Shown piece after piece: positions 2,970-17,132 of a stretch of DNA of 32,000 bases. A program made the translations under genes and the position numbers. The stretch is taken from positions 60,001-92,000 of the forward strand of contig NZ_CP013011.1 of the NCBI RefSeq assembly GCF_001412615.1, written 5' to 3'. This stretch comes from Pyrodictium delaneyi. GTDB lineage: Archaea > Thermoproteota > Thermoprotei_A > Sulfolobales > Pyrodictiaceae. Below the pieces are notes generated by a model. It was given only the letters and a program-made list of their open reading frames with translations, ran no database searches and was not told where the DNA came from. Numbering within the stretch: the first letter of the stretch is position 1; each line of letters opens with the position of its first letter.

Positions 2970-3082
2970 GGACAGGTTACATCACCAAGAACCAGGGGCA
3001 CGAGGAGTTGCATATTAGTGTTATATCAGAAGGCTTGAAGACTAGTACCGCCCCGGAGCCTATCTAGCACGGTGCGGAGAGG

Positions 3083-3637: not shown

Positions 3638-3729
3638 CGATGTATGCCCACCCCCAGCCCAGCTTTTTACATCAACCCATCCCCCTCATTCCCCCATGCC
3701 ATATACCCGCACTTTTTCGGAGACAAGCC

Positions 3730-3900
3730 ATGAGCTGTGAGCGGGAAACCGTACTGAAGCTATTAGTGAAGCTCCGTCGAGAGATAAGAGCACTTGACAT
3801 AGATGAACAAGCTAAAGCGAAGGTTCTCGAAAAGATCAGAGCCTATGAGCTTGAGCTTGAGGAGCTGCTGGCCGAGGAGCCCGTGTTCTCTAGGAGCTGA
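3730..3900 (+). CDS. 56-aa coiled-coil protein
   Basis: Internal ATG of ORF 3457..3900 gives MSCERETVLKLLVKLRREIRALDIDEQAKAKVLEKIRAYELELEELLAEEPVFSRS. A TTTTTA box lies about 60 nt upstream. The upstream part of the tracked ORF looks non-coding (P/H/Q-rich). Confidence 0.45.
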   Translation: MSCERETVLKLLVKLRREIRALDIDEQAKAKVLEKIRAYELELEELLAEEPVFSRS

Positions 3901-4196
3901 TACATGGCTCTAAGCAGGTCAGCTATCTTTTTGCCCTTCTCGGTCAGCTTGACGCATGTTACCTCTTTCTTCTTGCGCGGGTCGTAGCAGACACCACGCT
4001 CAACTAGGCCTAGATCCTCTAGGTGCCTATAAGCATCATAGAATGTGCCCGAGCCAAGCTCTACTTGTAGCTCGTACTGTGGGATCTCATCCTTGCCGCC
4101 TTCTATGAAAGCACGTAGGAATTTCTCGATGCTCTTAGCCTTGAAGATTATGAGCCCCACTTCCTTTTCCCGAATCCAGAGAGGGGGTGTATGCAA
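3843..4196 (-). CDS. winged-helix DNA-binding protein
   Basis: 117 aa with a TTG start. IPQYELQVELGSGTFYDAYRHLEDLGLVERGVCYDPRKKKEVTCVKLTEKGKK has the helix-turn-helix plus beta-wing pattern of wHTH regulators. Confidence 0.6.
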   Translation of the reverse strand: MHTPPLWIREKEVGLIIFKAKSIEKFLRAFIEGGKDEIPQYELQVELGSGTFYDAYRHLEDLGLVERGVCYDPRKKKEVTCVKLTEKGKKIADLLRAMYQLLENTGSSASSSSSSSS

Positions 4197-4226
4197 ATTT
4201 CAGCTTTTTTCGTGGTAGTAGTCTGA

Positions 4227-4619
4227 CTACCAGTCTCCCGCGCCCGCTCTCTCCTCTACTCTCTGCGTTTTGGCTAAACTAAGAGCATGTTCTAACAAGC
4301 TTTCTTTGAGCTCTCCATCCTTTAGAAGTCGGAGTAAAAGGATTCTAAGCAGCTCTAGCTCCTGGTAGAGATCTGGTCTTGCACGTTCTAGTTGCTCAAA
4401 GAACTTATTCACGCGTTCAAGTAGTGTCTCCCCGACTGGGGTCTTTAACCCACAATTAGGACATGTTGCGCGTTTTGCCGCTCCTCTATAACACCATGTA
4501 TAGCCGCAGTGTTTACAGACCACCCATGTGCCTGGACACATTCCGTTACTATGCCCGCTGGCGTGGTTGGTGGTCAGACTACTACCACGAAAACCGCGCA
4601 TTCCCGCTCCCGTTTTCAT
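4227..4619 (-). CDS. Zn-ribbon protein (start uncertain: 4619, 4601 or 4541)
   Basis: CKHCGYTW-x11-CPNCG forms a C2C2 ribbon, followed by a helical tail. The 5' part of tracked ORF 4227..4817 overlaps the divergent RHH gene and was discarded. Confidence 0.55.
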   Translation of the reverse strand: MKTGAGMRGFRGSSLTTNHASGHSNGMCPGTWVVCKHCGYTWCYRGAAKRATCPNCGLKTPVGETLLERVNKFFEQLERARPDLYQELELLRILLLRLLKDGELKESLLEHALSLAKTQRVEERAGAGDW

Positions 4620-4686
4620 CTCTTTGCTGGCCTCTTTTTTCGGTTTCTGGATTCGGAGAAGGGCAATAAGCTTATATCTGATGCAA

Positions 4687-4704
4687 TCCGACTCTAGAAT
4701 CGGA
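4687..4704. promoter_or_regulatory. imperfect 18-bp palindrome in the divergent Zn-ribbon/RHH promoter region (candidate operator)
   Basis: tccgaCtctagaAtcgga. A further TCGGA core lies in the string attcggag at 4651-4658. The TATA-like cttatat at about 4671-4677 lies between them. Confidence 0.35.
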
Positions 4705-4718
4705 GCCCAGAGCCCGAG

Positions 4719-4916
4719 GTGAGAGGTGTGCCCCGACCCAAGATTGGAAGGCGTGTAACCGTCTCTCTCCCGCCCGAACTCTACGAGAAGATCGAGAACT
4801 ACCGAAAGAAGGAGCATCTAACAGAGATGAGCGAGGCAATACGTCGCCTGCTCTACAAGGCTATTGAGATCGAAGAGGAGAGGGCTCGAGCGGTAGCTGC
4901 GGCAACTACTGCCTAG
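4719..4916 (+). CDS. ribbon-helix-helix (CopG/Arc-type) DNA-binding protein
   Basis: RRVTVSLPPELYEKIENYRKKEHLTEMSEAIRRLLYKAIE shows a beta strand followed by two helices. GTG at 4719, or GTG at 4728 preceded by GAGGTGA. Confidence 0.7.
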   Translation: MRGVPRPKIGRRVTVSLPPELYEKIENYRKKEHLTEMSEAIRRLLYKAIEIEEERARAVAAATTA

Positions 4917-4923
4917 GGGGTGG

Positions 4924-5148
4924 ATGGGGATGGTGCGGTTCACCTACGAGAGCCTCATCGACTACGTGTTCACGAAGATGAATAAGGCGATGGAGCTGCT
5001 GGACGAGGCTATGCAGGCGCTCTGGTGTCGCGGCAAGAGCGTAGACGAGTGCCTCAAGGGCATCGACAAGGCGTACAGCCTCATCGAGGACGCCAAGCTC
5101 GAGCTCAGCGAGGCAATATCAGAGATACTGGTCGTAATGGTGGGATGA
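4924..5148 (+). CDS. small helical hypothetical protein
   Basis: 74-aa ORF with GGGGGTGG directly upstream. Its stop overlaps the next start region (ATGAATG). Confidence 0.5.
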   Translation: MGMVRFTYESLIDYVFTKMNKAMELLDEAMQALWCRGKSVDECLKGIDKAYSLIEDAKLELSEAISEILVVMVG

Positions 5149-5322
5149 ATGCGGGTCGTGACGTTCAAGGTGGATGAGGACTTCCTCGAAAAGCTAGACA
5201 GCTTCGCCCGCTTGAAGGGCGTGACCAGGAGCGAGGTCATCAGGAAGGCGTTGGAGCTGTACCTGAGGCTAGAGGATTGGAAGGTGCGCCCCGAGCCGAA
5301 GATAGTGAGGCTGCTGAGCTAG
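5149..5322 (+). CDS. second ribbon-helix-helix protein (57 aa, below the ORF-track cutoff)
   Basis: My own translation: MRVVTFKVDEDFLEKLDSFARLKGVTRSEVIRKALELYLRLEDWKVRPEPKIVRLLS, stop TAG at 5320-5322. The pattern is a classic RHH (VTFKVDEDFLEKLD...RSEVIRKAL). Confidence 0.65.
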   Translation: MRVVTFKVDEDFLEKLDSFARLKGVTRSEVIRKALELYLRLEDWKVRPEPKIVRLLS

Positions 5323-5334
5323 GGTGGCACAGCA

Positions 5335-5841
5335 GTGCACCATATCTGCCTCTTCATAGTCGAGGCAGACTCTAGGGAAGAGGCTGAGGAGCTGGCGCTG
5401 TGTGCCTGGACGGGGGACACGGCCTACTGCGCTCCGAGGTGGTGGCCGCCGCCCGTCAGGGTGCTCTGCGGCGTCAAGTGGGACTATGCCACTACAGTAG
5501 GCAAGCTCAAGCTGTACGAGCGCCAGCTCATAGAGGGCGGCGTCCCGCCGAGCTGCGCCCGCCGCATCATGGAGCGGCTGCCCAGGTGCCCCCACGAGTG
5601 GGACAGGGACGACGTCACCGTGGCCTGCCTGGACTTCCCTGCGAGGGTGTCAGACCTGGGCATAGACGCGGCCTACGCGATAGCAGCCGCGTTCAACGGC
5701 ATGGGCGACATCTGCCTCAACATCCTCTACAGGGAAGACACGGCAATCATCTACAGCAGCGGCCTGTGGAAGCTCCGCAAACTGCTAAACACCAGGAGCC
5801 ACGACAAGCTATGGCTAGTCATAGTAGACGCCCACGAGTAG
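5335..5841 (+). CDS. hypothetical protein (168 aa, Cys/Trp-rich, no recognisable domain)
   Basis: Longest coherent frame in this stretch. The competing frame 5400..5849 is Arg/Gly/Pro-rich junk. Confidence 0.5.
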   Translation: MHHICLFIVEADSREEAEELALCAWTGDTAYCAPRWWPPPVRVLCGVKWDYATTVGKLKLYERQLIEGGVPPSCARRIMERLPRCPHEWDRDDVTVACLDFPARVSDLGIDAAYAIAAAFNGMGDICLNILYREDTAIIYSSGLWKLRKLLNTRSHDKLWLVIVDAHE

Positions 5842-5845
5842 AGGG

Positions 5846-6148
5846 GTGACACCCGTGGCGGCTGAGCGTCTCCTGGCGTGGCTGGACAAGAACTCTGACA
5901 GGCTGCTGCTGGTGGGGGTGCTCTGGCTCGCCGCCGTCATGACGCTACAGCTGGCGCTCACAGCGCTTGGGCACAAGACCATCGAGGACGTGGCCAGGGA
6001 AGAGGTGCGGGAATGGCTGGTGACGCATAACATCACCGTGGTGGTGCAGCAGCCGAGGACCGTCGAGCTGCCAGAGAACCTGTTCTACCTGCTGGTGTTT
6101 GCGCTACTCTTCATGCCACTAGTAGGGGCAATACTCCGAGACAGGTGA
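5846..6148 (+). CDS. two-TM membrane protein (start more likely GTG at 5855)
   Basis: Hydrophobic segments LLLVGVLWLAAVMTLQLALTALG and LFYLLVFALLFMPLVGAIL. GGGGTGA lies 5 nt before the GTG at 5855. Confidence 0.5.
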   Translation: MTPVAAERLLAWLDKNSDRLLLVGVLWLAAVMTLQLALTALGHKTIEDVAREEVREWLVTHNITVVVQQPRTVELPENLFYLLVFALLFMPLVGAILRDR

Positions 6149-6154
6149 TACGCC

Positions 6155-6688
6155 GTGGCGCTGGACGCTAGGCAGCTCAAGGCCCGGTACCAGCAGAAGT
6201 GGCGTATCGCTGCAAGGCGGGAGCTTGCTGTGCTGAATCTGCTGAACATCCTGCTGCCGGACGGCTACGTGGCTATAGCGGCTGGGCTCGGCACGGGTAC
6301 GACGGACTTCATCGACCGGAGCTATGGGAGCCCGCTGGACGCGTTCGACCTGGTGGTGCTCCGGGGCATGGACGCTGTGGCGTTCATAGACGTTACGGGG
6401 TTCTGGAGCGAGCAGGCCGCCAGGACGGTAAACGGCGGCAAGGAGCTCTGCGTGGGCGCGTGGAAGCTCTGGAAGGCCCAGCGCTTCGGCCTGCTCGACC
6501 GCGCCTGGATAGTCCACGTCGCCGACAAGCGCGTCAGCCTACGCTGGCTCCCCCTAGCAGCCCTCGAGGCCGAGAAGCACATGGCACGCCTAGTCCACGG
6601 CGAGCGCCCATACTACTGCCTACCCCAGCAGAAGTGGCGCGACACAAGCGCGTTCATCCGCTGGCTCACTGCCCAGGCCCACGCCTAG
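6155..6688 (+). CDS. Hjc-like PD-(D/E)xK nuclease-fold protein (putative junction resolvase) with a C-terminal extension
   Basis: AGGTGA lies 5 nt before the GTG start. The N-terminal half runs parallel to my memory of Pyrococcus Hjc. [20 protein letters not shown] matches [41 protein letters not shown] matches VDLVAGNGKKYLCIEVKVT, and [23 protein letters not shown] matches [26 protein letters not shown]. Confidence 0.4.
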   Translation: [177 protein letters not shown]

Positions 6689-6717
6689 CCCTCTTTCTCC
6701 CCGCATACTCCCTTCAA

Positions 6718-6746
6718 CACACGTACACATGGGGGTGGTACGTGTG
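6718..6746. promoter_or_regulatory. 9-bp-stem inverted repeat between the Hjc-like gene and the wHTH gene
   Basis: cacacgtac-acatgggggtg-gtacgtgtg. The arms are perfectly complementary. Confidence 0.35.
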
Positions 6747-6819
6747 CCCGGGCGTTGTGGCTTCACAGCTGTCACGCGCCGGGAACTGAAGAAGCTAGAG
6801 AAGACGGGGGTGGCCGAAG

Positions 6820-7092
6820 ATGCGCTTTGTGGATAAGATTGGTGTGCTGCTTGAGCTCGCGGAGAGGAGCGATGGCTGCATCGAGCAGCGAGAGCTGGCG
6901 CATGAGCTGGAGAAGCGTGGACTCAACCCGGTGACTGCTAAGAGCAGTGCTAGCCGGCTCGTTAACAAGCTACTGTCCGCCGGGCTGGCCGTGGAGTGTT
7001 CGCCAAGCCCCAGGGGCTCCAAGCGCATATACGTAGAGCCTGACATCTTGCGCACACTCATCCAAGTATGCAAGCTATGCAAGGAAGTCTAA
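6820..7092 (+). CDS. winged-helix DNA-binding protein
   Basis: 90 aa. IEQRELAHELEKRGLNPVTAKSSASRLVNKLLSAGLAVE...GSKRIYV fits HTH plus wing. Confidence 0.6.
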   Translation: MRFVDKIGVLLELAERSDGCIEQRELAHELEKRGLNPVTAKSSASRLVNKLLSAGLAVECSPSPRGSKRIYVEPDILRTLIQVCKLCKEV

Positions 7093-7106
7093 CAGGGTGG
7101 CCGGCA

Positions 7107-7670
7107 ATGGGTAGGCATGTGTTGTACTCTATATTCTACCGCTGTGGTGATGGCCGGGAGCGGCTGCGTTGTGTGGACGAGGCGGGGTTCCGGCGGGCGC
7201 TGGCTGGTATCGCTGAGGCTGGCTGCCGGGTGGAGTTCATCCACGACGACGTGCTGCCGCGCGAGCCATGGCTCGCCGACTACGTGCTCGCGCTGCTACA
7301 CTATGCTGGTAGGCCGCTGAGGCTCTACCAGGTGGTGAGGCTGCTGAGCGTCTTCGCGATGCTGGCGGGGCTCGAGGACGAGCTAGAGGTCTATGACACC
7401 GGCAAGGGCCCCTGGAGCACCGAGGTAGAGACCACGGTGTACGAACTGGTGTACACCGGGTACCTGGAGTCCACGAAGCGGGGCTACGCGCTCACCGAGG
7501 CCAAGGGCGTCGACGAGGCACGCTGCGCGGCGGCGGTGATAGAGGCCTGGAGCAGCGACGAAGCCAAACTCCTCAAACGCCTAGCCGAGAAAACCAGGCG
7601 GATGAACAGGGCCCAGTTCAACGCGTTCATAGAGAAACTACGGCCAGTGAGGGCGGCCACCCATGTATGA
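7107..7670 (+). CDS. hypothetical protein with a wHTH-like central region
   Basis: In-frame ATG at 7107 of ORF 7068..7670 avoids overlap with the upstream gene. Central segment: YVLALLHYAGRPLRLYQVVRLLSVFAML...GPWSTEVETTVYELVYTGYLESTKRGYALTE. Confidence 0.5.
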   Translation: MGRHVLYSIFYRCGDGRERLRCVDEAGFRRALAGIAEAGCRVEFIHDDVLPREPWLADYVLALLHYAGRPLRLYQVVRLLSVFAMLAGLEDELEVYDTGKGPWSTEVETTVYELVYTGYLESTKRGYALTEAKGVDEARCAAAVIEAWSSDEAKLLKRLAEKTRRMNRAQFNAFIEKLRPVRAATHV

Positions 7671-7815
7671 GCTTGACCCCGAGGCCATGGAGATGGCGGT
7701 GTACTGGCTCTTCGACCACGAGCTCTGGGAGCTGCTCAGCGACATAGAAGCCGCCAAGCGCGACGCAGAATGGCTCAAGAAAATCCTCAGAAAGAGGGTG
7801 GCCGGGGATGGCTAG
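7663..7815 (+). CDS. 50-aa acidic helical protein (below the ORF-track cutoff)
   Basis: My own translation: MYELDPEAMEMAVYWLFDHELWELLSDIEAAKRDAEWLKKILRKRVAGDG. Its ATG overlaps the upstream stop (ATGTATGA) and its stop overlaps the next ATG. Confidence 0.4.
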   Translation: MYELDPEAMEMAVYWLFDHELWELLSDIEAAKRDAEWLKKILRKRVAGDG

Positions 7816-8008
7816 TCGTCTTGCACGTTTCTTGGGGCGTGTCCTCAGGCCCCTGGAGCTCCTTGGGGAGATAGAGCGCCGGGCCCGCTGCATACGCTGG
7901 GAGCAGGAGTGCCGTTTCTACGGCAAGAACTGCCTCGAGTATAAGCTCACATGCCACGATACAAAACCGCTGGGCCGGCTCCTGAGGGGGCTGCTCCGCA
8001 GAGGCTAG
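7808..8008 (+). CDS. 66-aa basic Cys-containing protein
   Basis: ORF coupled to the previous gene (ATGGCTAG overlap). Contains CIRWEQEC..C..C. Confidence 0.4.
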   Translation: MASRLARFLGRVLRPLELLGEIERRARCIRWEQECRFYGKNCLEYKLTCHDTKPLGRLLRGLLRRG

Positions 8009-8010
8009 AG

Positions 8011-8037
8011 TATATGTATATGTATATACTATATGTA
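8011..8037. repeat. AT-rich TATATG-type micro-repeat and palindrome at a convergent gene junction
   Basis: tatatgtatatgtatatactatatgta. It contains the palindromic gtatatac. It is a sharp AT island in a GC-rich element. Confidence 0.5.
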
Positions 8038-8940
8038 GCCCCACTCGCGGGCGATGTCCTCGAGCTCCAGCTCTTCCACCGCTTCTTTATCGTCGCTCTC
8101 GGCTATCTCCTCTAGCTCCTCTGCCGCCTTCTCCGCGAGCTCCTCTAGCTCCTTCTGTATCTTCTTGGTGCCCGCCTCTACGTATTTGTCGCGCATCCTC
8201 TTGTAGTCCAGGTATATCTCGTCCGGCAGGACTGCCATGAACCTGTACTCCCAGAGCGGCTCGGGCATCTTCCGGCGGTAGAAGAGCCACTCGAAGTCCT
8301 CGCTGTCGACTATGTAGCCCCTCGTCTTGCTTATCTTGACGAAGCACTTCTCGTGTGCCTCTGCCAGCTCCCTGTACGTCTTGCCCCGGTTGGCTTCTAT
8401 CAGCCTGCGGCACTCGGGGATGTCCCGGCGGGGTTTCACGTTCTCGACGCTGACGAGATCCACGAGGCTCAGCGACTCCCTTATGCCCTTGGCGAGCTTC
8501 CCGTAGCTGGTCGCCGTGAATATCATCGTGGAGACGTGGGTACGTATCACCTCTAGGTGCTCGACCACGGCCATCACGAACTTGGACTTGTAGCGGCCGC
8601 GGAACAGCCAGGCGCCAGCGTCGTCCCATATCGCGAGGGGTATCCTCTTGTGGTGGTCGACCAGCTCCTTGAAGACCCGGACGAACTCGGTCGGGCTGTA
8701 GAAGATGTACTTCTTCGCCGTGTCCCAGTCCCTGTAGACGCCCAGCAGGAGCTTGATAGCCAGCACGGACTTGCCTATCCCGCGCTTGAAGATGGCGTTG
8801 GGGTACGCGAATATCCCCCAGAGCAGCCCGTAGTCGTTCACGTAGCTCTCCCATATAACCTCTAGGTGCGGCATCTTCGCCGTATGCCTGTTTATGAACT
8901 CCTGCAGTGTTAGCTGTTTCTTGGCCTTCGCCAGGCTCAT
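8029..8940 (-). CDS. P-loop NTPase with an acidic C-terminal tail
   Basis: Walker A FKRGIGKSVLA and Walker B PLAIWDDAGAW. The tail reads EELEELAEKAAEELEEIAESDDKEAVEELELEDIAREWGYI. The alternative frame 8087..8854 is Arg/Gly junk. Confidence 0.75.
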   Translation of the reverse strand: MSLAKAKKQLTLQEFINRHTAKMPHLEVIWESYVNDYGLLWGIFAYPNAIFKRGIGKSVLAIKLLLGVYRDWDTAKKYIFYSPTEFVRVFKELVDHHKRIPLAIWDDAGAWLFRGRYKSKFVMAVVEHLEVIRTHVSTMIFTATSYGKLAKGIRESLSLVDLVSVENVKPRRDIPECRRLIEANRGKTYRELAEAHEKCFVKISKTRGYIVDSEDFEWLFYRRKMPEPLWEYRFMAVLPDEIYLDYKRMRDKYVEAGTKKIQKELEELAEKAAEELEEIAESDDKEAVEELELEDIAREWGYI

Positions 8941-8963
8941 TCTCCCAGCCCTACATAGCCGCC

Positions 8964-9350
8964 TTATTCTTCGCTCTCTTCGCCGTATATGATGCGCTTC
9001 ACAGGCTTCATCATGATTGGCGTCTGCGCCTGGCCCCTCGCAGCCCTCATCACGCTTATAATCTCCTTCAAGCGGCGGCGCCTGCGGCTAGCACGGAGTA
9101 TCAGCAGGTTCTCGGTCATGCTCCTCAGTATGGTGGGCTGCTGCCAGCCCATGTGCTGGCGGAGCATCTCGTCCACAGCCAGCAGCATCGCTATGCTCCG
9201 TATCTCGCCGTCCTTCAGGTCGCTCAGAGTGTACTTTGCTAGGCCCTCTGGCTCGACAAGCCGCTCAACCACGTAGTTCATAGCGCGGAACGGGTCGGGG
9301 CCCTCTCCGCCGCCCTTCCTCGCCTTCTGAATCTTATCCAAGAGCCTCAT
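8964..9350 (-). CDS. hypothetical protein (128 aa, basic RRRRR patch)
   Basis: ORF preceded by AGGTGGA. Its ATG overlaps the upstream stop (ATGA). Confidence 0.5.
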   Translation of the reverse strand: MRLLDKIQKARKGGGEGPDPFRAMNYVVERLVEPEGLAKYTLSDLKDGEIRSIAMLLAVDEMLRQHMGWQQPTILRSMTENLLILRASRRRRRLKEIISVMRAARGQAQTPIMMKPVKRIIYGEESEE

Positions 9351-9511
9351 GAGACATCCACCTGACGGGTAAGCCAGGTAACTGCGTATTTCGCTGTGAG
9401 TATCACCGTGATTGCGAGAGCGATAGTAACATCTTTCGTGAGTAGATAAGCCAGCATACCCATTGATGCTATAATCATCATAATCGCCAAAACTGCTAGA
9501 GTGCGGAACAT
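9347..9511 (-). CDS. 54-aa two-TM membrane protein (below the ORF-track cutoff)
   Basis: My own translation: MFRTLAVLAIMMIIASMGMLAYLLTKDVTIALAITVILTAKYAVTWLTRQVDVS. GGTGAGAG lies upstream. It is stop/start-coupled to 8964..9350. Confidence 0.5.
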   Translation of the reverse strand: MFRTLAVLAIMMIIASMGMLAYLLTKDVTIALAITVILTAKYAVTWLTRQVDVS

Positions 9512-9516
9512 GACTC

Positions 9517-10191
9517 TCACCCTGGCGTGTAGTTGCCGGGCGGCGGAAGCTCGTAGAGCGGCTTGCTCGGCAGCGTCACCTTGATGTCTATCGGCTTGGC
9601 TCCGATTTGGACTGGAACGCCCATGGCTGGCAGCACCACCAGGATGACTAGCACCGCGAGGCCCAGCCCCAGGAACATGCCGTACATCAGCAGGCTGTAG
9701 TCCTGTGCAACTACTCTTGCCACCTTGCTGAGCAGCTTGCTGTTGATTACCGCATAGCTCAACTCTGGTGGAAGCTGCCGCGCCTTAGCCCGCAGCGCCT
9801 CGCCGTCTACCTCGACTTCGAGGATGTTGCCCTCGCGGTCGGCTATCCACATGGGGACTAGGCGCTTGACCAGGTAGCGGCGTATCTCCACGTACTGCGG
9901 CCTAATCCCCCTCACGAGCCACGACTTCCCGCTCTTGTCCGAGACCGCCCAGCCGTCGCTCGTAATCCTCACAGTGTGCAGGACATAGTTGTTCTCGTCC
10001 ACCTGCTCAAGCACCCAGCCATGCCCGACCACTTTCTTCGCCGCCGTTATGCCCTGCTTCTCGGCCTCTTGCTCAGCCTCGGCTGTCTTCAGCCTGACTT
10101 CCCGCCTCATGCTCCAGAGCAGCAGCGCCAGGACTCCTATCGCGAGCGTGAGGGCGAATCCGGCTAGGCCTAGGATGGCCTCGAACTGCAT
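9517..10191 (-). CDS. bitopic membrane protein (N- and C-terminal TM segments with a soluble middle domain)
   Basis: TM segments ILGLAGFALTLAIGVLALLLW and LLMYGMFLGLGLAVLVILVVLPAM. GGTGAGAGG abuts the ATG. Confidence 0.6.
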   Translation of the reverse strand: MQFEAILGLAGFALTLAIGVLALLLWSMRREVRLKTAEAEQEAEKQGITAAKKVVGHGWVLEQVDENNYVLHTVRITSDGWAVSDKSGKSWLVRGIRPQYVEIRRYLVKRLVPMWIADREGNILEVEVDGEALRAKARQLPPELSYAVINSKLLSKVARVVAQDYSLLMYGMFLGLGLAVLVILVVLPAMGVPVQIGAKPIDIKVTLPSKPLYELPPPGNYTPG

Positions 10192-10201
10192 CCTCTCACC
10201 C

Positions 10202-10906
10202 CTAGACGGGCTTGATTATGTCTACTATGAGCTTCACGATTTCGGCCACGGTCTTGAACAGCTTCTCGAACATCCGGTAGATACGCTCGAAGAAATCGAG
10301 CCACATGGTTATGAAGCCGAGCAGCGGGAACAGCGACCGCTCCCTCGCGGCGCGGTTAGCGCTGTCCACGAACGTTGCTAGTATCATCGTCAGCACTATC
10401 CAGGGTATCCACGGTATGATGTTCACGCCCCAGGCCTTTATGGTTGCAAACGCCCACACAACTATCTCGACGAACGACGTTAGTGCTGCTATCAGGGCGG
10501 CGCCTATGTTGAAGATGAGCCAGCCTAGGTTGAATATCAACTGTAGGATGTAGCTGCCGAACACGTCCAGGAACTTGACCACGGCGCCGATTATCGGCAC
10601 GGCTTCTATCTTGTCCTTTATCCAATTCCAGAGGGATTTGGCCCCCTCTTGCACCTTGCAGCCTATGTAGCCGAATACGTCCCAGCTCAGCCAGCTGTCT
10701 GGCGGCTGGCAGCCAGTAGTGTTCGTGAAGTTGAAGCTCTGCACGAACTCGCGGAACGGTGTTGTATTATCGCTGTATATCGGGTTCTGGGCACCGGTAA
10801 CATTGTAGAGTATCTCTATCGGGTTGGGCGGAGTAGTCATGTTCCAAGTAGTGGTCTGCCCCACTAGCAGCAAAGAAACAATGAGCAGGGGCAGCAGCCG
10901 GCGCAC
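10202..10906 (-). CDS. secreted, glycosylated polytopic membrane protein
   Basis: Signal-like N-terminus MRRLLPLLIVSLLLVG followed by QTTT. Sequons NMT, NVT, NTT, NFT and NTT, then 3-4 hydrophobic helices. AGGTGGTG precedes the GTG start. Confidence 0.6.
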   Translation of the reverse strand: MRRLLPLLIVSLLLVGQTTTWNMTTPPNPIEILYNVTGAQNPIYSDNTTPFREFVQSFNFTNTTGCQPPDSWLSWDVFGYIGCKVQEGAKSLWNWIKDKIEAVPIIGAVVKFLDVFGSYILQLIFNLGWLIFNIGAALIAALTSFVEIVVWAFATIKAWGVNIIPWIPWIVLTMILATFVDSANRAARERSLFPLLGFITMWLDFFERIYRMFEKLFKTVAEIVKLIVDIIKPV

Positions 10907-10916
10907 GGTGCACCAC

Positions 10917-11198
10917 CTAGGCGGGCTTCTTCTCGACTAGGTATATCTCGACGGGTATCGGGCTGTACGCCTTCACCCAGTTCTTGTAGAGCTGGAACGC
11001 CTCGTCCCTGGCGATTCCCTCTAGTTCTACTTCGGCCCTCTTCGCGTGGTCGCCGTAGACTTCCTTCGAGGCCGAGATGAACTGGAGTGTGCGGTGTGCT
11101 GCGAAGAGCCAGATTTTGAGTCGGCCGCGGATTGCTATCGTTTTCCTACGCAGCGTTTTGCCGTCACCGTTGTATATCTTGACGATTATCTTGGGCAT
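10917..11198 (-). CDS. hypothetical soluble protein (93 aa)
   Basis: Internal ATG at 11198, preceded by GGGGTGA, gives MPKIIVKIYNGDGKTLRRK... The upstream part of tracked ORF 10917..11459 is H/R/G-rich and overlaps the neighbouring gene. Confidence 0.5.
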   Translation of the reverse strand: MPKIIVKIYNGDGKTLRRKTIAIRGRLKIWLFAAHRTLQFISASKEVYGDHAKRAEVELEGIARDEAFQLYKNWVKAYSPIPVEIYLVEKKPA

Positions 11199-11215
11199 GC
11201 CCGTCACCCCGAGCT

Positions 11216-11452
11216 CTAGATTATCGCCTTCCCGAGGCGGTAGAGCAGCCACCCCGCTATCACCCCGAGAACCACCATCCAGACCGTGTTGGCGTCTATG
11301 CTCAGCGTGTAGTGGTGCTCCGGAGTCAAGGTTACCGTCGTGGTTACGGTTACGGTGGTCATGTTCGTGGTGTTGGTGTCGGTCTGGGCGAGGGACAGGA
11401 GAGCCACCACCGGGGCTATCCGGGGGATACGTAGGCGCCACAGCTGCAACAC
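11216..11452 (-). CDS. small secreted Thr-rich, C-terminally anchored protein (78 aa)
   Basis: GTG at 11452 (GGTG upstream) gives VLQLWRLRIPRIAPVVALLSLA-QTDTNTTNMTTVTVTTTVTLT...VWMVVLGVIAGWLLYRLGKAII. It has the same architecture as the three plus-strand paralogs. Confidence 0.5.
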   Translation of the reverse strand: MLQLWRLRIPRIAPVVALLSLAQTDTNTTNMTTVTVTTTVTLTPEHHYTLSIDANTVWMVVLGVIAGWLLYRLGKAII

Positions 11453-11511
11453 CCAGCACCGATTGTAACTAGGAGCCCCGGCTCTGACTAAACTATTGTG
11501 GCGTGATGCAC

Positions 11512-11530
11512 CTACATCACAGTGATGTAG
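11512..11530. promoter_or_regulatory. perfect 19-bp palindrome between the two divergent structural operons (candidate operator)
   Basis: ctacatcac-a-gtgatgtag. It is flanked by A/T-rich boxes (aatagttta on the minus strand at about 11487-11495, and catatctaatt at about 11548-11558). Confidence 0.45.
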
Positions 11531-11603
11531 CAACAACACTTAGCAGCCCATATCTAATTCCTGCTGCAACAACTGTTACACGACAGAGCGTGAGGTGTGA
11601 GAG

Positions 11604-11849
11604 GTGCGCATCCTATCCCGGCTCAAGGAGAAGATAGACGAGAAGAAGATAGCCAGGAAGATAGCCGAGCACCCCGAGGCAGTGGCGGCTCTAACCCTCG
11701 TGGCTCAGACAACTACAAACGACACCGCAACCACGACAACAACTGTAGACCTAAGCCCGATGGTCAGCATAATCAGCAGCGTCATCCCGCTATTCGTGCT
11801 AGTAGCAGTCATAAAGATACTCTTCAAGAGCTTCAAGGACGTAGCATAG
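11604..11849 (+). CDS. small membrane protein, paralog 1 (candidate virion structural protein)
   Basis: GAGGTG lies 6 nt before the GTG start. A charged amphipathic N-terminus is followed by AVAALTLVA-QTTTNDTATTTTT, the TM segment MVSIISSVIPLFVLVAVIKILF, and KSFKDVA. Confidence 0.65.
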   Translation: MRILSRLKEKIDEKKIARKIAEHPEAVAALTLVAQTTTNDTATTTTTVDLSPMVSIISSVIPLFVLVAVIKILFKSFKDVA

Positions 11850-11864
11850 CGGGGCTGAGCAGTA

Positions 11865-12071
11865 ATGGCCAGCATCAACCGAATCAAGGAGAGAGTAAAG
11901 AGCCTGGCCAGCAGGCTGGGCCCGCCTGCCGCCGGCGCCGCCGTCCTAGTCGCGCAGACCGACAGCATGACAACCACAATATCTCTGGTAAACAGTGTCA
12001 TCCCGGTGCTAGTGCTGGTGATGGTTCTGAAGTTACTGTTCTCCAGCTTCAAGGAGATAAGCAAGGACTAG
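11865..12071 (+). CDS. small membrane protein, paralog 2
   Basis: MASINRIKERVKSLASRLG..AAVLVA-QTDSMTTT..VIPVLVLVMVLKLLFSSFKEISKD. Same layout as paralog 1. Confidence 0.65.
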   Translation: MASINRIKERVKSLASRLGPPAAGAAVLVAQTDSMTTTISLVNSVIPVLVLVMVLKLLFSSFKEISKD

Positions 12072-12082
12072 GGGTGGGACAC

Positions 12083-12292
12083 GTGTTCAAGCAGCTCAAG
12101 GAGAGACTGAGGGCGGGTTTTCGCAGGGCGGCCCCAGCCGCCGCAGCGGCCCTAGCACTGGCGCAGACGAGCACTTCAACATCTGGCTACGACGCAGTCG
12201 GCACGGTAGTCACTATGCTCATAGCCGTGGCGCTGCCAGCGCTGATACTCGTCAGCATCGTAAAGATGATTATGAACCATATACGCGCCTAG
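12083..12292 (+). CDS. small membrane protein, paralog 3 (GTG at 12083 or 12074)
   Basis: This is the 3' end of tracked ORF 11597..12292. VFKQLKERLRAGFRRAAPAAAAALALA-QTSTSTSG..VVTMLIAVALPALILVSIVKMIMNHIRA. GGGGTGG lies upstream. Confidence 0.6.
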   Translation: MFKQLKERLRAGFRRAAPAAAAALALAQTSTSTSGYDAVGTVVTMLIAVALPALILVSIVKMIMNHIRA

Positions 12293-12474
12293 CGCCACTC
12301 GTAGCAGCGATAGCGTTCACGGCGCAGAGCGCAGTAGAGACAGTCATAGACGTAAACCAGCAGGTCGCGGCGCTCATAGGGGCGCTCACGGTCTTCCTGC
12401 CGGTCGCCATACCTGCCATCATACTGCTGACTCTGCTGAAGATACTCTTCAGCGCCATGAAGCCAACGAGGTGA
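12292..12474 (+). other. start-less fourth copy of the small membrane-protein unit (pseudogene, recoded, or unconventional start)
   Basis: The frame open from 12061 to TGA at 12472-12474 encodes ..APLVAAIAFTA-QSAVETVIDVNQQVAALIGALTVFLPVAIPAIILLTLLKILFSAMKPTR. It shares the 13-nt string aagatactcttca with paralog 1 (11814-11826 vs 12439-12451). There is no ATG, GTG or TTG until 6 codons before the stop. Confidence 0.4.
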
Positions 12475-12479
12475 CCCGC

Positions 12480-12587
12480 ATGGGGTTTTTCGAGCCCCTT
12501 CTCCTCGGCGCCCTGGTCTACATGGTTATCCTGTTCTCGATGGTGATGCGGGTTGGCGGTGAGGATGAGGAGTCTGGCGGTGGCTAG
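12480..12587 (+). CDS. possible 35-aa TM peptide
   Basis: My own translation: MGFFEPLLLGALVYMVILFSMVMRVGGEDEESGGG. It overlaps the start of the large glycoprotein gene. Support is weak. Confidence 0.25.
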   Translation: MGFFEPLLLGALVYMVILFSMVMRVGGEDEESGGG

Positions 12588-15021
12588 CCTGATTGCCCTC
12601 GCTGTGCTACTGCCCCTAGCGAGCTCGCAGACCACGATGCTCCAGAACGTCTACTACCTGGACGTAGTCCAGGGACATTGGTACGCAGTATACACCGGCG
12701 GCACTCCATACAGAGTCTTCTACGTGGACGGCAGCGGGCAGACAGTCTATGTGACGTCGTACTGGTGGGACGCGAACCAGAGCTACATCATATTCCAGGC
12801 ACCCATCACCGGTAAGGTGTATCTGCGCGAGGAGCCGAGCCTCACACTATCAACACTCAGCACCACGGGATGGTGGAACTCCATCTCTGCGAGCGTGACA
12901 ATCACGACTAATAGCACGTTTCCGAACGGAACATACACAATGACGTTTAATCCGGCAAGCATAACGTATGATGGGAAGCAGCTAAAGATTGGATACGCGG
13001 CGAGCATCACGAAGGGATGGTATGGCCGGCTCGATGTCAACACTAAGTATTTCTTCGACTTCCAGTCATCAATAACGATAGACGATAGCAGCCTGAGCGT
13101 GTATGCGCGCTACGTGACAAGCTACTACTGCTATCCGTCACCGACGTACTGTTGGGAGCAGCGGCCTGTCTACAGCTCGCCAATCAATGGCGTGGCCGTG
13201 AACAGACCCGACCCGACGCAGTGTAACGTAGTTGCAAAATATTCGTATGTCCATGGACTACTGACTGTCACTGCAACAATCACGAACTATGGTGGAAGTT
13301 GTGAAACAGGTCAGAACGAGTACATATTGACACTATATACAACTAAGACAGTTGTTGTGAACGACTCGTTTACAGCGGACAATGGAAACACAGTTCATAT
13401 TGTTGACAGTCTCACTTACGCGGACATAGTTGCAACCAGTAGTAGCGCGACGTACTATCTCCAGAGCAGCCAGTGGAGCATAACGTTCCCTAACAGCACA
13501 GACATTGATAAGCCGCTCGTGCTTCTGCTACCAAGCAACATAAGCATGAGCAACCCGGCGGCCTACATCAAGAGTCCGCTAACGGCGTGGGCTGGCGTCG
13601 TGGCTAGGAGCGCTGGCAACTACACGCTGCTGGTCTTCAGCCCACCGGCCATGTACAACACTAGCAGCGTCAGCCTAGACCTGGTGGCAAACTATCCCTA
13701 CCGCTACGCGATACCACCAATCAACGTGAGATATGCAACCAGATTGGACATAGGCAGCATCCTGCCGGTATCGGGGAGCTTCAGCGTTGTGAACGGAGTA
13801 GCTGTGATAGACGGCAACATAAGCCTCGGGCAGCTCATAGGCTCAACGCTGCTGCTCCGCGGCGACCTAAGCAACGCCACCATCACAGGCGCAGAGGCCG
13901 GCAACATCACCATAGACGGCACCACGTGGCTAGCGCTCTACGTCTACGACACTAACGCCATGATAAGCGGGCATGCGGAGATAGCCGAGCTCATAGTCCT
14001 CGAGAACACCAGGACTATGATGGACTACACTGCCAGCATGACGGCGGGCTGGGACATTAGACCGTATGAAGTAGTCTCGGTAGAGGCTATCAGCTCGGCG
14101 AGCGTCTCCGGGAGCTGGGCTTATAGGATACCGGTCTACATCACGCTGTCGTATCTCCCGCAGAGCCTCACGGATACTGGCTACTTGTTCAGGCTGGAGC
14201 TGCCCATCGGCGACTGGATTAGAGCGGGGCTGCTATCACCTGCGCTCGAGGACTTGCTCATAGTGGACAGCTCGATGCAGCCGCTGCCATTCGCCATCAT
14301 AAAGAACGACGGTGAGAAGGCCGTGGTATACGTGCGCTACACCAGGCCGCTGCTCAGCCAGTCCATCGTGATATACATCCTGCTGAAGAACGAGCAGCTC
14401 TGGGGCACCGGGAACAGCTTCGCCAGCCTCGTAGCCACGTTCGACCGTATCAATCCCGCCGAGGGAGTGGACGACCTGGGGTGGAGCTACGGCTACAGCT
14501 ACATGGTCTACAACGCCTGGCTGTTCATAGGCAACGCTACCATTGCAGCCGGGCCTACCACATTCGACTTCGTGGCCTGGGAGCCGTCCAGCGGGCTCAT
14601 CTACGAGCAGCACGGCAGCCTGGTTACACAAAACATCTCAGTGACCCCCGCGAGCGGCGACGAGGTGCTGGTGCTCTTCAGCAACAATTATCAAGATGCT
14701 CTCGTGTATGTCGATGGCAAACCATGGTATAGTATACCACTGGCAAGCTTCAACATGACATCGCCGGCGTACTACGTCAAGTGGAAGAGCGCCGGAGCCG
14801 TCTACGCTGGCAAGATGATACCATACTCGTACGCAATCGGGCAGATTGTAGGCTCGCTGGAGCAGCCAGCGAAGGTGGAGATACAGCAGCCGGTGCCGCA
14901 GCAGCCGCAGCAGAGCGCGAGCATGTGGGACTTGCTCGCCGCGATGGCACCGCTGTTCCTGCTAGCCATCATAGTGAGGCTGATGCAGAACCCGCCAGCG
15001 CCAGCCCCCTACCCCAGATAG
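12565..15021 (+). CDS. large secreted, C-terminally anchored glycoprotein (candidate spike, fibre or receptor-binding protein)
   Basis: ATG at 12565 preceded by GGTGAGG (the track starts at TTG 12553). Signal MRSLAVASLIALAVLLPLASS followed by QTT. At least 13 N-x-S/T sequons (NQS, NST, NGT, NDS, NIS, NYT, NTS, NAT, NIT, NMT...). A Q/P-rich stalk precedes the TM segment LLAAMAPLFLLAIIV near the C-terminus. Confidence 0.75.
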   Translation: MRSLAVASLIALAVLLPLASSQTTMLQNVYYLDVVQGHWYAVYTGGTPYRVFYVDGSGQTVYVTSYWWDANQSYIIFQAPITGKVYLREEPSLTLSTLSTTGWWNSISASVTITTNSTFPNGTYTMTFNPASITYDGKQLKIGYAASITKGWYGRLDVNTKYFFDFQSSITIDDSSLSVYARYVTSYYCYPSPTYCWEQRPVYSSPINGVAVNRPDPTQCNVVAKYSYVHGLLTVTATITNYGGSCETGQNEYILTLYTTKTVVVNDSFTADNGNTVHIVDSLTYADIVATSSSATYYLQSSQWSITFPNSTDIDKPLVLLLPSNISMSNPAAYIKSPLTAWAGVVARSAGNYTLLVFSPPAMYNTSSVSLDLVANYPYRYAIPPINVRYATRLDIGSILPVSGSFSVVNGVAVIDGNISLGQLIGSTLLLRGDLSNATITGAEAGNITIDGTTWLALYVYDTNAMISGHAEIAELIVLENTRTMMDYTASMTAGWDIRPYEVVSVEAISSASVSGSWAYRIPVYITLSYLPQSLTDTGYLFRLELPIGDWIRAGLLSPALEDLLIVDSSMQPLPFAIIKNDGEKAVVYVRYTRPLLSQSIVIYILLKNEQLWGTGNSFASLVATFDRINPAEGVDDLGWSYGYSYMVYNAWLFIGNATIAAGPTTFDFVAWEPSSGLIYEQHGSLVTQNISVTPASGDEVLVLFSNNYQDALVYVDGKPWYSIPLASFNMTSPAYYVKWKSAGAVYAGKMIPYSYAIGQIVGSLEQPAKVEIQQPVPQQPQQSASMWDLLAAMAPLFLLAIIVRLMQNPPAPAPYPR

Positions 15022-15069
15022 CGCTTTTTGCACTATCCGCTGCTCTCTACACTAGAGGGTGCACCAGAT

Positions 15070-15357
15070 ATGGCAAGGAATGTCTATCTGGGGCGCGACT
15101 GCCTAAGCCCGCCATGCGTAGATGACCGTGGCCGGAGAGGCCTAGACCGCATCTCGGAAGTCAAGGACATAGCCGACCGCATCATAGAGGACTGTGAGGC
15201 TGGACGCATATCCTATAGAACAGCAATGGCAAGGATGAATCTCCTAGAGCTCGTGGTCAGCAGGGACAGCAGCTTCTCGGTGGAGCAGCGGCTGAAGGCC
15301 CGCCGGCTCATAGACCGCAAGAGAGAGGAGCTCATGGAGAAGTGTGGCGGTGAGTAA
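15070..15357 (+). CDS. hypothetical helical protein (95 aa)
   Basis: Internal ATG of ORF 15028..15357 preceded by GAGGGTG. Sequence: MARNVYLGRDCLSPPCVDDRGRRGLDRISEVKDIADRIIEDCEAG... Confidence 0.45.
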   Translation: MARNVYLGRDCLSPPCVDDRGRRGLDRISEVKDIADRIIEDCEAGRISYRTAMARMNLLELVVSRDSSFSVEQRLKARRLIDRKREELMEKCGGE

Positions 15358-15360
15358 GCC

Positions 15361-16032
15361 GTGCTGGAGAGCCTGGTGGCCGGCACCCTCGCTTACCTCT
15401 TTTTGCGTAGGGACGTTCCCTCTACGCTCATTCCGTATCTTGCTTCCTTCGCAGCATTCCTGGATCAAGTCACTACAGTAGCAGCTATCAGTCTAGGCGC
15501 CCACGAGACTAATCCGTTCGTGCGCCTGTTCCTCGCGAGCCCCACACTCTTCTTCGCACTCTCGGCAGCCAAGATTCTGGTAGCGTGGCACATAGCCAGG
15601 CGGAGCCCAAGACTCGGGCTCTGGCTAGCTCTAGTCTTCCTAGCAGCCGCAGCGATAAACGCCCACAACGCCTACGCGCTCTACAACAATACCTCAACCA
15701 TAGAGCTTGGCGGCCACACGCTCCAGGTCTACATAGCTGACACAGAAAGGGAGAGGGAGTGCGGCTACTACTGCTACGACCACCCGGCGATAGCCTTCAT
15801 CTGGCCAGGGGGGACACCGCCGGAAGTAACCTTCACCATGGAAGGCCTGGACTACCCGCTGCTCCTAGTCCACGTCAGGGACTGCACAGTCATAGACGTG
15901 CTGGAGATGCAGCCCGGCGAGAAGTATAGAATAGATAATGTAGGGCCACAAGACTGGTTCATCGAGGTAAAGAACGCGAGCCTAGAGATAGAGCCTGGCG
16001 AAAATGTTTGGGGGCTAGTCTGCGAGGGCTAG
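15361..16032 (+). CDS. membrane domain (HETNPF motif) fused to a DUF192-like beta domain
   Basis: Four hydrophobic helices are followed by LQVYIADTERERECG...IAFIWPG...FTMEGLDYPLLLVHV...VIDVLEMQPG...WFIEVKNASLEIEPGENV. This matches my memory of the DUF192/COG1430 pattern. Confidence 0.45.
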   Translation: MLESLVAGTLAYLFLRRDVPSTLIPYLASFAAFLDQVTTVAAISLGAHETNPFVRLFLASPTLFFALSAAKILVAWHIARRSPRLGLWLALVFLAAAAINAHNAYALYNNTSTIELGGHTLQVYIADTERERECGYYCYDHPAIAFIWPGGTPPEVTFTMEGLDYPLLLVHVRDCTVIDVLEMQPGEKYRIDNVGPQDWFIEVKNASLEIEPGENVWGLVCEG

Positions 16033-16911
16033 GACTACGGCCCGGCGCGGCGGCTTCCTCTGCAACTCCCGAAACTTTTCGGGCCTCTCTAGCCCCTCTT
16101 CCAGCATCTTAAGGAGCTCGGGATAGCTCGCGTCTGCAAGCTGCCTGAGATTCTCGTAGGCCAGGTCGCCCACTTTGAGGCTCCCTAGCCTAGAGTGGTA
16201 GAACTCGCACACGTCACGGCCAAGTACACGGCGGCATACCTGGCGGTGCAGCTTTCTCAGCTTGGACGCCTCGAAGCCGAAGTCCCTGGTGAGCCGCCTC
16301 GTAAAGGTCTTGTAGCCTATGACCGTGCCCGCGTGCTCCTCTATAGCCTCTAAGAGTCTGGCCGGGAAGTAGATGTAGTCGCAGCGCTTCTTGCCACGCT
16401 TCCAGAAGAGCCCATATCTCGCCACGCCGTCGGGGAGAATCTCTAGTCTAGAGGGATCGTACTCGGCTATCATCCGGAGCACCTCGTCTATCCTGGCGCC
16501 GCTATAGTATAGTATGTAGAGTGATAGCCGCCATTCGGGCCTAACATGCTCTGCCACGTCCCTCAGGGCCGAGACTAGCTCTGCCCAGTCTATCTCCACG
16601 CGCTCCGACACCTTGCTCTCCGTCTTGCGCTTCAGCAGTGAGAGATAACGCTCCTTGGCGTCCTTGCTCAGTCTCCCAGTCTCGAAGAGAAACTGCACCA
16701 GCTTCCTGGCGGCCTTGTAGGCCTTGTCGTTGCCGAGGGCCTCTAGGGCCTTCTCCTCGTCCAGGTAGTCCAGCTTCTCCAGCGCCGAGACGTAGTCGTT
16801 CGCGGTGCGCTCCTCTATACGCTCCTTCTCTATGAGCCACCGCCTAAAGGACTGGAGCAGGCCCGAGTGCAGCGATATAACAGGCAGGCCCGATGACCCC
16901 GGCTCGACCAT
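16015..16911 (-). CDS. Integrase catalytic fragment Int(C), SSV-type tyrosine recombinase
   Basis: 298 aa with YSGARIDEV (catalytic Arg region), KLHRQVCRR (H-x-x-R) and a C-terminal Tyr region (GDLAYENL). The frame stays open upstream to the att core at 16944 (QVLDLLYRARR precedes the Met). Confidence 0.8.
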   Translation of the reverse strand: MVEPGSSGLPVISLHSGLLQSFRRWLIEKERIEERTANDYVSALEKLDYLDEEKALEALGNDKAYKAARKLVQFLFETGRLSKDAKERYLSLLKRKTESKVSERVEIDWAELVSALRDVAEHVRPEWRLSLYILYYSGARIDEVLRMIAEYDPSRLEILPDGVARYGLFWKRGKKRCDYIYFPARLLEAIEEHAGTVIGYKTFTRRLTRDFGFEASKLRKLHRQVCRRVLGRDVCEFYHSRLGSLKVGDLAYENLRQLADASYPELLKMLEEGLERPEKFRELQRKPPRRAVVLALAD

Positions 16912-16944
16912 GCGCCTTGCGCGATATAACAGGTCAAGAACTTG

Positions 16945-16989
16945 CTCCGCCTTACCAGGGCGGCGCTCTGCCGGCTGAGCTACGGCGGC
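16945..16989. repeat. attR core (orphan 5' half of tRNA-Thr)
   Basis: Exact 45-bp copy of 2706-2750. No T arm or 3' acceptor strand follows it. Confidence 0.95.
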
Positions 16990-17132
16990 ACGCTCCAGTG
17001 GTATCGGCTCTATCTACAGCCCCAGGTAAATCCCTTACGGCCCTATTACCGTGATATGGTTTCGCCTAGGCTGCAGTAGCAGTATTATTCTGGCAGCATC
17101 TCTGTACGCCTCCCCTGGGGTGGCTACACAGA

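Follow-up and report, generated by a model that had tools for sequence, protein, structure and literature searches.

A tandem array of small, signal-peptide-bearing membrane proteins in an APOV1-like provirus of Pyrodictium delaneyi: candidate building blocks of a virion membrane

The Guttaviridae are among the least understood archaeal virus families, with a single sequenced member and structural proteins whose identity is taken from an unpublished thesis; morphology serves to define the family, namely an ovoid or droplet-shaped, enveloped virion (profile by the ICTV, the international committee for virus taxonomy). APOV1, from Aeropyrum, is an isolated virus with enveloped virions (ICTV profile), and the passage of that profile on its proteins gives a 10.5-kDa major and two minor capsid proteins, cites the thesis for them and names no open reading frame (ORF). 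Another Aeropyrum virus, Aeropyrum globular virus 1 (AGV1), has been reported to share genes with Pyrodictium. In this work, we analyzed a stretch of 32,000 nucleotides from Pyrodictium delaneyi (the window: RefSeq assembly GCF_001412615.1, contig NZ_CP013011.1, positions 60,001 to 92,000 of the forward strand), which contains an apparently complete, temperate, APOV1-like provirus at 2706-16989. A literature search returned no paper connecting P. delaneyi with a provirus. We focused on an array of small genes within it, A to D at 11604-12474, and on a divergent gene, E, which a reading made from the letters alone (the sequence-only reading) had proposed as candidate major virion proteins. Our analysis suggests that A-D, and probably E, encode small type I membrane proteins which, on balance, probably serve as building blocks of the virion membrane (envelope or capsid). 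Their prediction as secreted, cleaved, single-pass viral membrane proteins is much more secure than that structural role.

The sequence-only reading had described A, B and C as three consecutive genes of one layout, followed by a fourth unit (D), with a fifth, divergent gene of the same architecture; all are present at the places given, and alignment showed the layout in each of them. The common layout consists of a basic N-terminus, a short hydrophobic stretch, an (A/G)|(Q/E)-T junction, a part rich in Thr, Ser and Asn, a Pro-containing transmembrane (TM) segment and a basic tail. Gene A (Pyrde_0090; 11604-11849, + strand) encodes an 81-aa preprotein from a GTG start with a GAGGTG Shine-Dalgarno sequence 6 nt upstream; residues 1-34 (11604-11705) form a predicted signal peptide with a predicted cut at A34|Q35 (CAG at 11706-11708), and an NDT sequon, a TM at about residues 53-74 and the tail KSFKDVA follow, in a mature part that is near-invariant among orthologues. 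Gene B (Pyrde_0091; 11865-12071, +) encodes a 68-aa preprotein with a predicted cut at A30|Q31 (CAG at 11955-11957), the TM VIPVLVLVMVLKLLF and the tail SSFKEISKD. Gene C (Pyrde_0092; 12083-12292, +) starts with GTG behind a GGGGTGG Shine-Dalgarno sequence, and its 69-aa preprotein has the predicted cut at A27|Q28 (CAG at 12164-12166), the TM LPALILVSIVKMIM and the tail NHIRA. Unit D (12289-12474, +) differs at the junction, which reads Q-S instead of Q-T. Gene E (11216-11452, - strand), divergent from A, encodes a 78-aa preprotein whose predicted signal peptide is short (RLRIPRIAPVVALLSLA|QT); its Thr-rich part carries NTT and NMT sequons, and it ends in a C-terminal TM plus the tail YRLGKAII. 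Orthologues occur in L001, L005, L007, L010 and L019 (our labels for related elements, introduced below). Two residues of the TM, the Pro and a Lys nine residues later, are invariant in an alignment of 14 A-D sequences. The K-x-L-F-x-S-F-K tail attributed to the whole array applied to A and B, loosely to D (KILFSAMK) and not to C (KMIMNHIRA). A 231-aa ORF at 11597-12292 was discarded as a frame artefact, being the stop-free -1 frame of A and B continuing into C; that frame of A and B lacks stops because the codon usage avoids T-ending codons ahead of AA, AG or GA. An imperfect inverted repeat of 18 nt (GTGATGCACCTACATCAC / GTGATGTAGCAACAACAC, 1 nt apart) lies at 11503-11539 between the divergent genes E and A and is a possible operator.

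The sequence-only reading had suggested that the long charged N-terminal region may be a removable propeptide. It is better read as part of a whole signal peptide, cut after (A/G) and before Q/E-T: the predicted leader comprises a basic n-region and an h-region of 9-13 residues, and its cleavage would leave a single-pass peptide rather than a two-helix hairpin. Four lines of evidence lead us to this assignment. (i) Leaders of orthologues differ freely in length and sequence (dN 0.3-0.8), whereas the junction and the last 34 codons stay nearly constant. (ii) In a census of 75 units from 53 family proteins, position -1 was Ala (49) or Gly (26) in 75/75, position +1 was Gln (65) or Glu (10) and position +2 was Thr in 70. 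(iii) The same junction lies behind the N-terminal hydrophobic leaders of large membrane proteins, as LASS|QTT in the 822-aa protein encoded next to the array and as LLVG|QTTT in a 234-aa protein; in lineage L010, Gln changes to Glu in A, C, E and the large protein, and B keeps Gln. (iv) In 18 of the 53 family proteins two or three units are joined in one polypeptide with the leaders internal, each unit being preceded by a basic linker and an h-region that ends in (A/G)|QT. By inspection, the proteins also show n-h-c organisation, a single TM and a positive-inside tail. We infer that the whole leader would be removed by host signal peptidase. The predicted mature peptides measure 38-49 residues (4.2-5.2 kDa before glycosylation), and 32 of the 75 ectodomains carry N-x-S/T sequons. 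A twin-arginine translocation (Tat) signal, considered for gene C on account of FRRAAP, was rejected because the RR pair is not conserved in its orthologues (RK, RN, RD).

The state of fusion differs between syntenic elements exactly at unit boundaries. A, B, C and D are separate in the Pyrodictium clade; L013 has A-B-U3 fused plus U4, L019 has A, a fused B-U3 and U4, and three units are fused in L018. The topology predicted for the fused proteins alternates consistently, with the TM running from outside to inside, the basic loop in the cytoplasm, the next h-region running from inside to outside and the cut placed on the outer face.

That A-D are not chance ORFs follows from the recurrence of the set A-B-C-D(-E) in four other lineages and from its low ratios of nonsynonymous to synonymous substitutions (dN/dS). 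These ratios, computed pairwise between lineages on the last 34 codons, with saturated synonymous sites, were 0.03-0.13 for A, 0.03-0.15 for C in most pairs (0.48 in one pair), 0.09-0.38 for D and 0.22-0.46 for B. Paralogy of the units was recovered in part. BLASTP aligned A with B (E 4e-7, 41% identity), gave a borderline match between B and C (E 0.007), aligned D over TM and tail only (E 1.0) and gave no alignment of E to A-D. Gene E thus matches A-D in layout, with its homology to them not shown by BLAST, and a hidden Markov model (HMM) of the E family reached the APOV1 protein ORF12-85 with just E 0.07.

In L001 (ERZ940685 k127_55310), a contig of 14,623 bp from a hydrothermal vent, the genes of the element recur in unchanged order with an unsplit 420-aa integrase. 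Because its ends overlap by 127 bp, a length equal to the assembler k-mer, we take it for a circular, closed genome of about 14.5 kb that can serve as reference for the episomal form. Further syntenic copies were found in contigs L005, L007, L010, L015 and L017, in a provirus within a 363-kb scaffold (L013) and in contigs of 12.9 kb and 18 kb (L018 and L019), so that the syntenic lineages, one of them the closed 14.5-kb genome, number at least eight across Pyrodictiaceae and other vent archaea. For the small proteins themselves, a word-indexed search returned 13 relatives, all from Pyrodictium or vent metagenomes, and an exhaustive profile search of 1.84 billion representatives returned 44 at E<=1e-3; in the records searched, family proteins carry "hypothetical protein" as their sole label. 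Scans of genome and IMG/VR contigs with a profile of A orthologues and with the 822-aa protein produced pattern matches, none of which was confirmed by tblastn, and the family profile had no match among PDB sequences at E<=10.

The one relative from a cultured virus came from APOV1. When an HMM built from five lineages was run against 723 six-frame ORFs of APOV1, SSV1 and APSV1, APOV1 ORF12-85 was the top match (E 5.6e-6), and hhalign aligned it to the family with 87% probability (E 4e-6). On the strength of these two matches, and with no corresponding support from the fusellovirus proteins VP1 and VP3, we assign the array to the APOV1 ORF12-85 family; by these profile comparisons ORF12-85 is the only known homologue. 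The resemblance extends to organisation, as ORF12-85 has a basic N-terminus, the sequence ...ALALAVLG|QTTTTD and one Pro-containing TM, and its gene likewise adjoins those of membrane-anchored proteins bearing N-terminal leaders. The backbones are also alike (DnaA-like protein, gp17, gp18, winged helix-turn-helix [wHTH] protein, DUF5658 protein and SSV-type integrase), in genomes of 13.8 kb for APOV1 and 14.2 kb for the provirus. Matches to APOV1 were obtained by BLASTP for the wHTH protein (39% identity, E 4.5e-20), the DUF5658 protein and the integrase, by BLASTP and profile for gp18 (E 1e-8 and 2.2e-13, respectively) and by profile for gp17 (1.4e-9); the DnaA-like protein is common to both, and the gp17-like protein also matches SSV1 B277 (5e-6). 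In contrast, APOV1 has one copy of the small gene where the Pyrodictium clade has four tandem units and E, no similarity was detected for most of the structural module (822-aa, 234-aa and 93-aa proteins), and the host belongs to a different family. The genes held in common with APOV1 and SSV1 place the element in the fusellovirus/guttavirus gene-sharing group named by the ICTV profile.

The viral nature of the array, already supposed in the sequence-only reading, is borne out by its position within a 14.2-kb integrated provirus of that group. The provirus is bounded by perfect 45-bp attachment repeats at 2706-2750 and 16945-16989, whose starts are 14,239 bp apart, and the left copy lies inside a tRNA-Thr gene (2675-2750, GGT anticodon). 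Its SSV-type integrase (Pfam PF16795) is split into IntN (2622-2969, -), which extends into the tRNA-Thr gene, and IntC (16015-16911, -), and its GC content is 57.7% against 50.3% for the flanks. Besides a DUF5658 protein, it encodes a VirArc-family nuclease (6155-6688), 41.7% identical (E 4e-34) to that of AGV1, and a module at 8029-10191 (-) of p224 (gp17/B277-like), p128 (gp18-like) and the DnaA-like ATPase, in the order of APOV1 gp17-gp18-gp19. This module also parallels SSV1 B277-C102/A153-B251 and is conserved across both virus families. AGV1 was considered as the nearest cultured relative and set aside, as the nuclease is the sole gene in common and the small-protein family does not occur in it. 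Megablast of 9000-17000 against a phage collection gave no match, and PHROGs contained no family for A-E or for the 822-aa protein.

The sequence-only reading had also pointed to major capsid or envelope proteins of spindle-shaped and other crenarchaeal viruses, and its statement that SSV1 VP1 and VP3 have two hydrophobic segments and that VP1 is cut at its N-terminus was accurate. These proteins (PF06281; SSV19 VP1 structure 7xdi) do resemble those of the array: they too are small, very hydrophobic and glycosylated, with VP1 processed at the N-terminus, their genes are paralogues in tandem within a temperate virus of 15 kb that has the same integrase and DnaA-like genes, and they have in common with the array a (V/I)PLF motif and a K-x-aromatic-K-D tail. 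One may ask whether the array encodes VP1/VP3-type capsid proteins in which the helix-loop-helix hairpin is kept, with a glycosylated outer loop, and the charged N-terminal propeptide alone is removed. The uncleaved topology would fit VP1 (N-terminus inside, a first hydrophobic stretch H1, a Thr/Ser/Asn-rich loop, H2 with (V/I)PLF and a tail of the form K-x-(Y/F)-K-D), fuselloviruses have B277-like, DnaA-like and integrase genes in common with the element, and the loop together with the VPLF motif is exactly where hhalign placed its best local match. That match, however, to a profile of 18 VP1/VP3 sequences, has a probability of 5.6% over 24 columns centred on (V/I)PLF. Pfam PF06281 (VP1/VP3) and PF25665 (His1 capsid) gave no match to A-E at E<=0.1 and none to 14 family members at E<=10; SSV1 VP1 and VP3 themselves scored 73 and 131 bits with PF06281. 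The family HMM did not retrieve VP1 or VP3 among the SSV1 ORFs. Membership of the SSV1 or His1 capsid families therefore found no support. Moreover, VP1 and VP3 keep two long helices, and H1 of VP1 spans about 22-24 residues and is nearly invariant, whereas the first stretch of the array proteins is of 9-13 residues, poorly conserved and followed, not preceded, by the conserved cleavage-type junction, which is also the one behind the leaders of the large membrane proteins; a mature protein with a pair of long, conserved hydrophobic helices and a glycosylated loop between them was not recognized in the family. The resemblance is real in layout and in one short motif, with no evidence of homology in these comparisons, and we regard a kept hairpin of the VP1 type as improbable.

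Unit D deserves separate consideration. It can be read over 61 codons (LAPLVAAIAFTA|QSAVETVIDVNQQVAALIGALTVFLPVAIPAIILLTLLKILFSAMKPTR; TGA at 12472-12474), and in 5/5 Pyrodictium-clade lineages it begins at the codon overlapping the C stop, in the -1 frame of C. In-frame starts occur within the h-region in L001 (TTG), L005 (GTG) and L007 (TTG and GTG); there is no in-frame ATG, GTG or TTG for D in the window or in L010, an ATA at 12310-12312 of the window occupying the position of the L001 TTG, and no Shine-Dalgarno sequence was seen ahead of D. Since D is under purifying selection in every pair, the two start-less lineages included (dN/dS as above), it is translated even there. More distant lineages carry D as an ordinary gene, complete with a Shine-Dalgarno sequence (GGGGGTGA), a GTG or TTG start and a full leader, and we therefore conclude that the Pyrodictium clade lost the start, the Shine-Dalgarno sequence and the n-region. 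A programmed -1 frameshift or a bulge-helix-bulge (BHB) intron was ruled out as the explanation: the final codons of C held no slippery X XXY YYZ heptamer in any of the lineages, and a search for conserved RNA structure found none (RNAalifold consensus -1.98 kcal/mol, 0 compensatory pairs). The stop-free -1 frame across C was within the expectation from codon usage (P 0.07-0.3 per lineage), with similar results for A and B of the window. If read through, the C/D junction, KMIMNHIR(A)/LAPLVAAIAFTA|QS, would resemble the linkers of fused relatives, such as SRTFFVKLAPAALLA|QT in P0018. It is tempting to speculate, although we consider it doubtful, that the small peptides are made as, or have evolved from, a repeated-unit polyprotein cut by host signal peptidase, with D recoded from C. 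As part of that same proposal, a -1 frame change or a hop at the C stop would yield a C-D precursor in which the C tail (KMIMNHIR) and the D h-region (LAPLVAAIAFTA|QS) would together act as an internal signal peptide. Whatever its route of expression, the start-less, frame-shifted fourth unit makes this hyperthermophilic archaeon a candidate for unusual translation.

Returning to the role of the peptides as virion-membrane building blocks, we propose the following course. Each unit would be made with a Sec-type signal peptide having an unusually long, basic, amphipathic n-region and an h-region of 9-13 residues, and would enter the host membrane, where host signal peptidase would cut just before the Gln/Glu; the new N-terminus may then cyclise to pyroglutamate, and the short Thr/Ser/Asn-rich ectodomain may be glycosylated. 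The mature peptide of 38-49 residues would thus be a Pro-kinked TM helix with a conserved Lys and a short, basic, cytoplasmic tail. Such peptides could lie packed against one another in the membrane, along with the anchor at the C-terminus of the 822-aa glycoprotein, and enter the virion envelope at budding, with the basic tails toward the DNA core. In the fused proteins, the cytoplasmic tail of one unit would be the n-region of the next internal signal peptide, and the units would be released by signal peptidase, as in structural polyproteins of the flavivirus type. We favor a structural role because (i) in every element the array is co-oriented with, and adjoins, a large leader-bearing anchored protein, (ii) fused or separate, the units keep their number, (iii) the TM is almost frozen, as expected of lattice-packed helices, and (iv) the element belongs to an enveloped-virus group and the tail is basic and cytoplasmic, as in the inovirus coat protein pVIII. 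The position beside the 822-aa membrane-anchored protein is where structural genes would be expected.

Several points weigh against this interpretation. The signal-peptide cleavage is a prediction from sequence rules. Unit D of the window has an unusual residue, Phe, at position -3, and B and C have h-regions rich in Ala and only weakly hydrophobic. The AlphaFold2 (AF2) model of gene A, with helices at residues 3-22, 24-35 and 51-80 and a disordered Thr-rich linker, is of moderate confidence (mean predicted local distance difference test [pLDDT] score 70, about 90 over the TM), and the Foldseek comparison suggested with the sequence-only reading returned 0 matches with it, single helices being uninformative in such a search. 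Recoding from C, reinitiation after termination and near-cognate initiation are all possible routes for the expression of D. As regards APOV1, the masses of ORF8 (10.7 kDa), ORF13 (11.3 kDa) and ORF20 (10.8 kDa) are nearer to the 10.5-kDa major capsid protein than that of ORF12 (precursor 9.35 kDa, mature 5.4 kDa), which is a poorer fit. Finally, a basic soluble protein of 93 aa adjoining the array (10917-11198, -; 10.8 kDa, pI 9.9), separate and conserved, could be the major nucleocapsid or core protein instead. Its AF2 model (pLDDT 87.5) shows a beta-beta-alpha-beta-alpha-beta domain for which neither PDB nor BFVD gave a fold match at E<1e-3, and its profile fails to reach APOV1 ORF13.

Alternatively, the array might encode non-structural viral membrane proteins, absent from particles and acting in superinfection exclusion, in host-membrane remodelling or egress, or as chaperones of the large glycoprotein. 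The 93-aa protein could supply the core, and small single-pass proteins serve egress or exclusion in other archaeal and bacterial viruses. Such roles sit less well with the retention of four to five paralogous units in every lineage, with the extreme constraint on the TM, with genes that are always co-transcribed with a spike-like protein, and with a 14-kb genome of an enveloped-virus group in which no other small membrane structural candidate was seen; we consider them rather unlikely. Pilin-like subunits of an integrative element, whether of the type IV or of the conjugative VirB2/Ced type, are also small hydrophobic proteins with processed leaders, and gene C has a sub-threshold match to the inovirus coat family (PF19199; E 0.006, 17.1 bits against a cutoff of 24.6), the single such match in the array. 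The proteins, however, lack the class III signal peptide of archaeal type IV pilins, as the conserved junction, and hence the cut, follows the hydrophobic stretch; no assembly ATPase, VirB4/TraG or PibD-type genes were seen in the 14-kb element, the mature part has one TM against the two-helix hairpin of VirB2-type pilins, and the backbone is that of a virus, APOV1 being an isolated one. A pilin function thus appears very improbable.

The genes adjoining the array on its 3' side belong to the same co-oriented block. ORF F (12481-12587, +) encodes 35 aa (MGFFEPLLLGALVYMVILFSMVMRVGGEDEESGGG) with one TM and an acidic tail behind a strong GAGGTGA Shine-Dalgarno sequence, and at its 3' end it runs into the beginning of the 822-aa gene. 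ORF F is kept in L005, L007 and L001, where it is called as a gene of 31-32 aa. The 822-aa protein (12553-15021, +), with the N-terminal leader given above and the C-terminal anchor MAPLFLLAIIVRLMQNPP, is a putative spike or end-filament glycoprotein co-transcribed with A-D. It had no match in Pfam, PHROG or the phage collection (tblastn), and syntenic counterparts of 805-1164 aa are present in all related elements. Its anchor (MAPLFLLAIIVRLM) resembles the TM of the small proteins (IPLFVLVAVIKILF), with an HMM score that is not significant, and the pattern x-P-L-hydrophobic run-R-L-x-x-N-P-P is found at 14930-15021 and at the C-termini of the large proteins of L001, L005, L007, L013 and L019.

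Altogether, the locus provides relatives of APOV1 in Pyrodictiaceae and other vent archaea and gives the group a hallmark family of tiny signal-peptide-bearing membrane proteins; the occurrence of both fused and unfused forms points to a precursor of repeated units that is processed by signal peptidase. Should the peptides indeed build the envelope or capsid, they would offer sequence markers for such viruses in metagenomes and a concrete model of how an ovoid, enveloped virion is assembled in archaea.

Proteins that are small, hydrophobic and processed are already known from spindle-shaped or ovoid viruses of archaea, and what is new here is the tandem array of four to five units, the signal-peptide junction with its polyprotein forms, and the start-less fourth unit. 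The working principle proposed for the array peptides is that of inovirus pVIII, from which host leader peptidase removes a signal peptide to leave a single helix of about 40-50 aa that is stored in the host membrane before assembly; its N-terminus is short and lies outside, and beyond the TM a basic C-terminal tail faces the DNA. The array differs from pVIII in its archaeal host, in belonging to an enveloped dsDNA virus, in its Thr-rich, glycosylatable ectodomain and in having several paralogues and polyprotein forms. These forms recall, in turn, the flavivirus prM-E and alphavirus E3-E2-6K-E1 polyproteins, in which TMs alternate with internal signal peptides and a host enzyme cuts on the outer face, an arrangement mirrored by the family proteins of two or three units. 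There is no sequence relation between them, the archaeal units are tiny and repeated, and their processing is a prediction; to our knowledge, a repeated-unit polyprotein cut by signal peptidase into envelope or capsid peptides has not been described for archaeal viruses.

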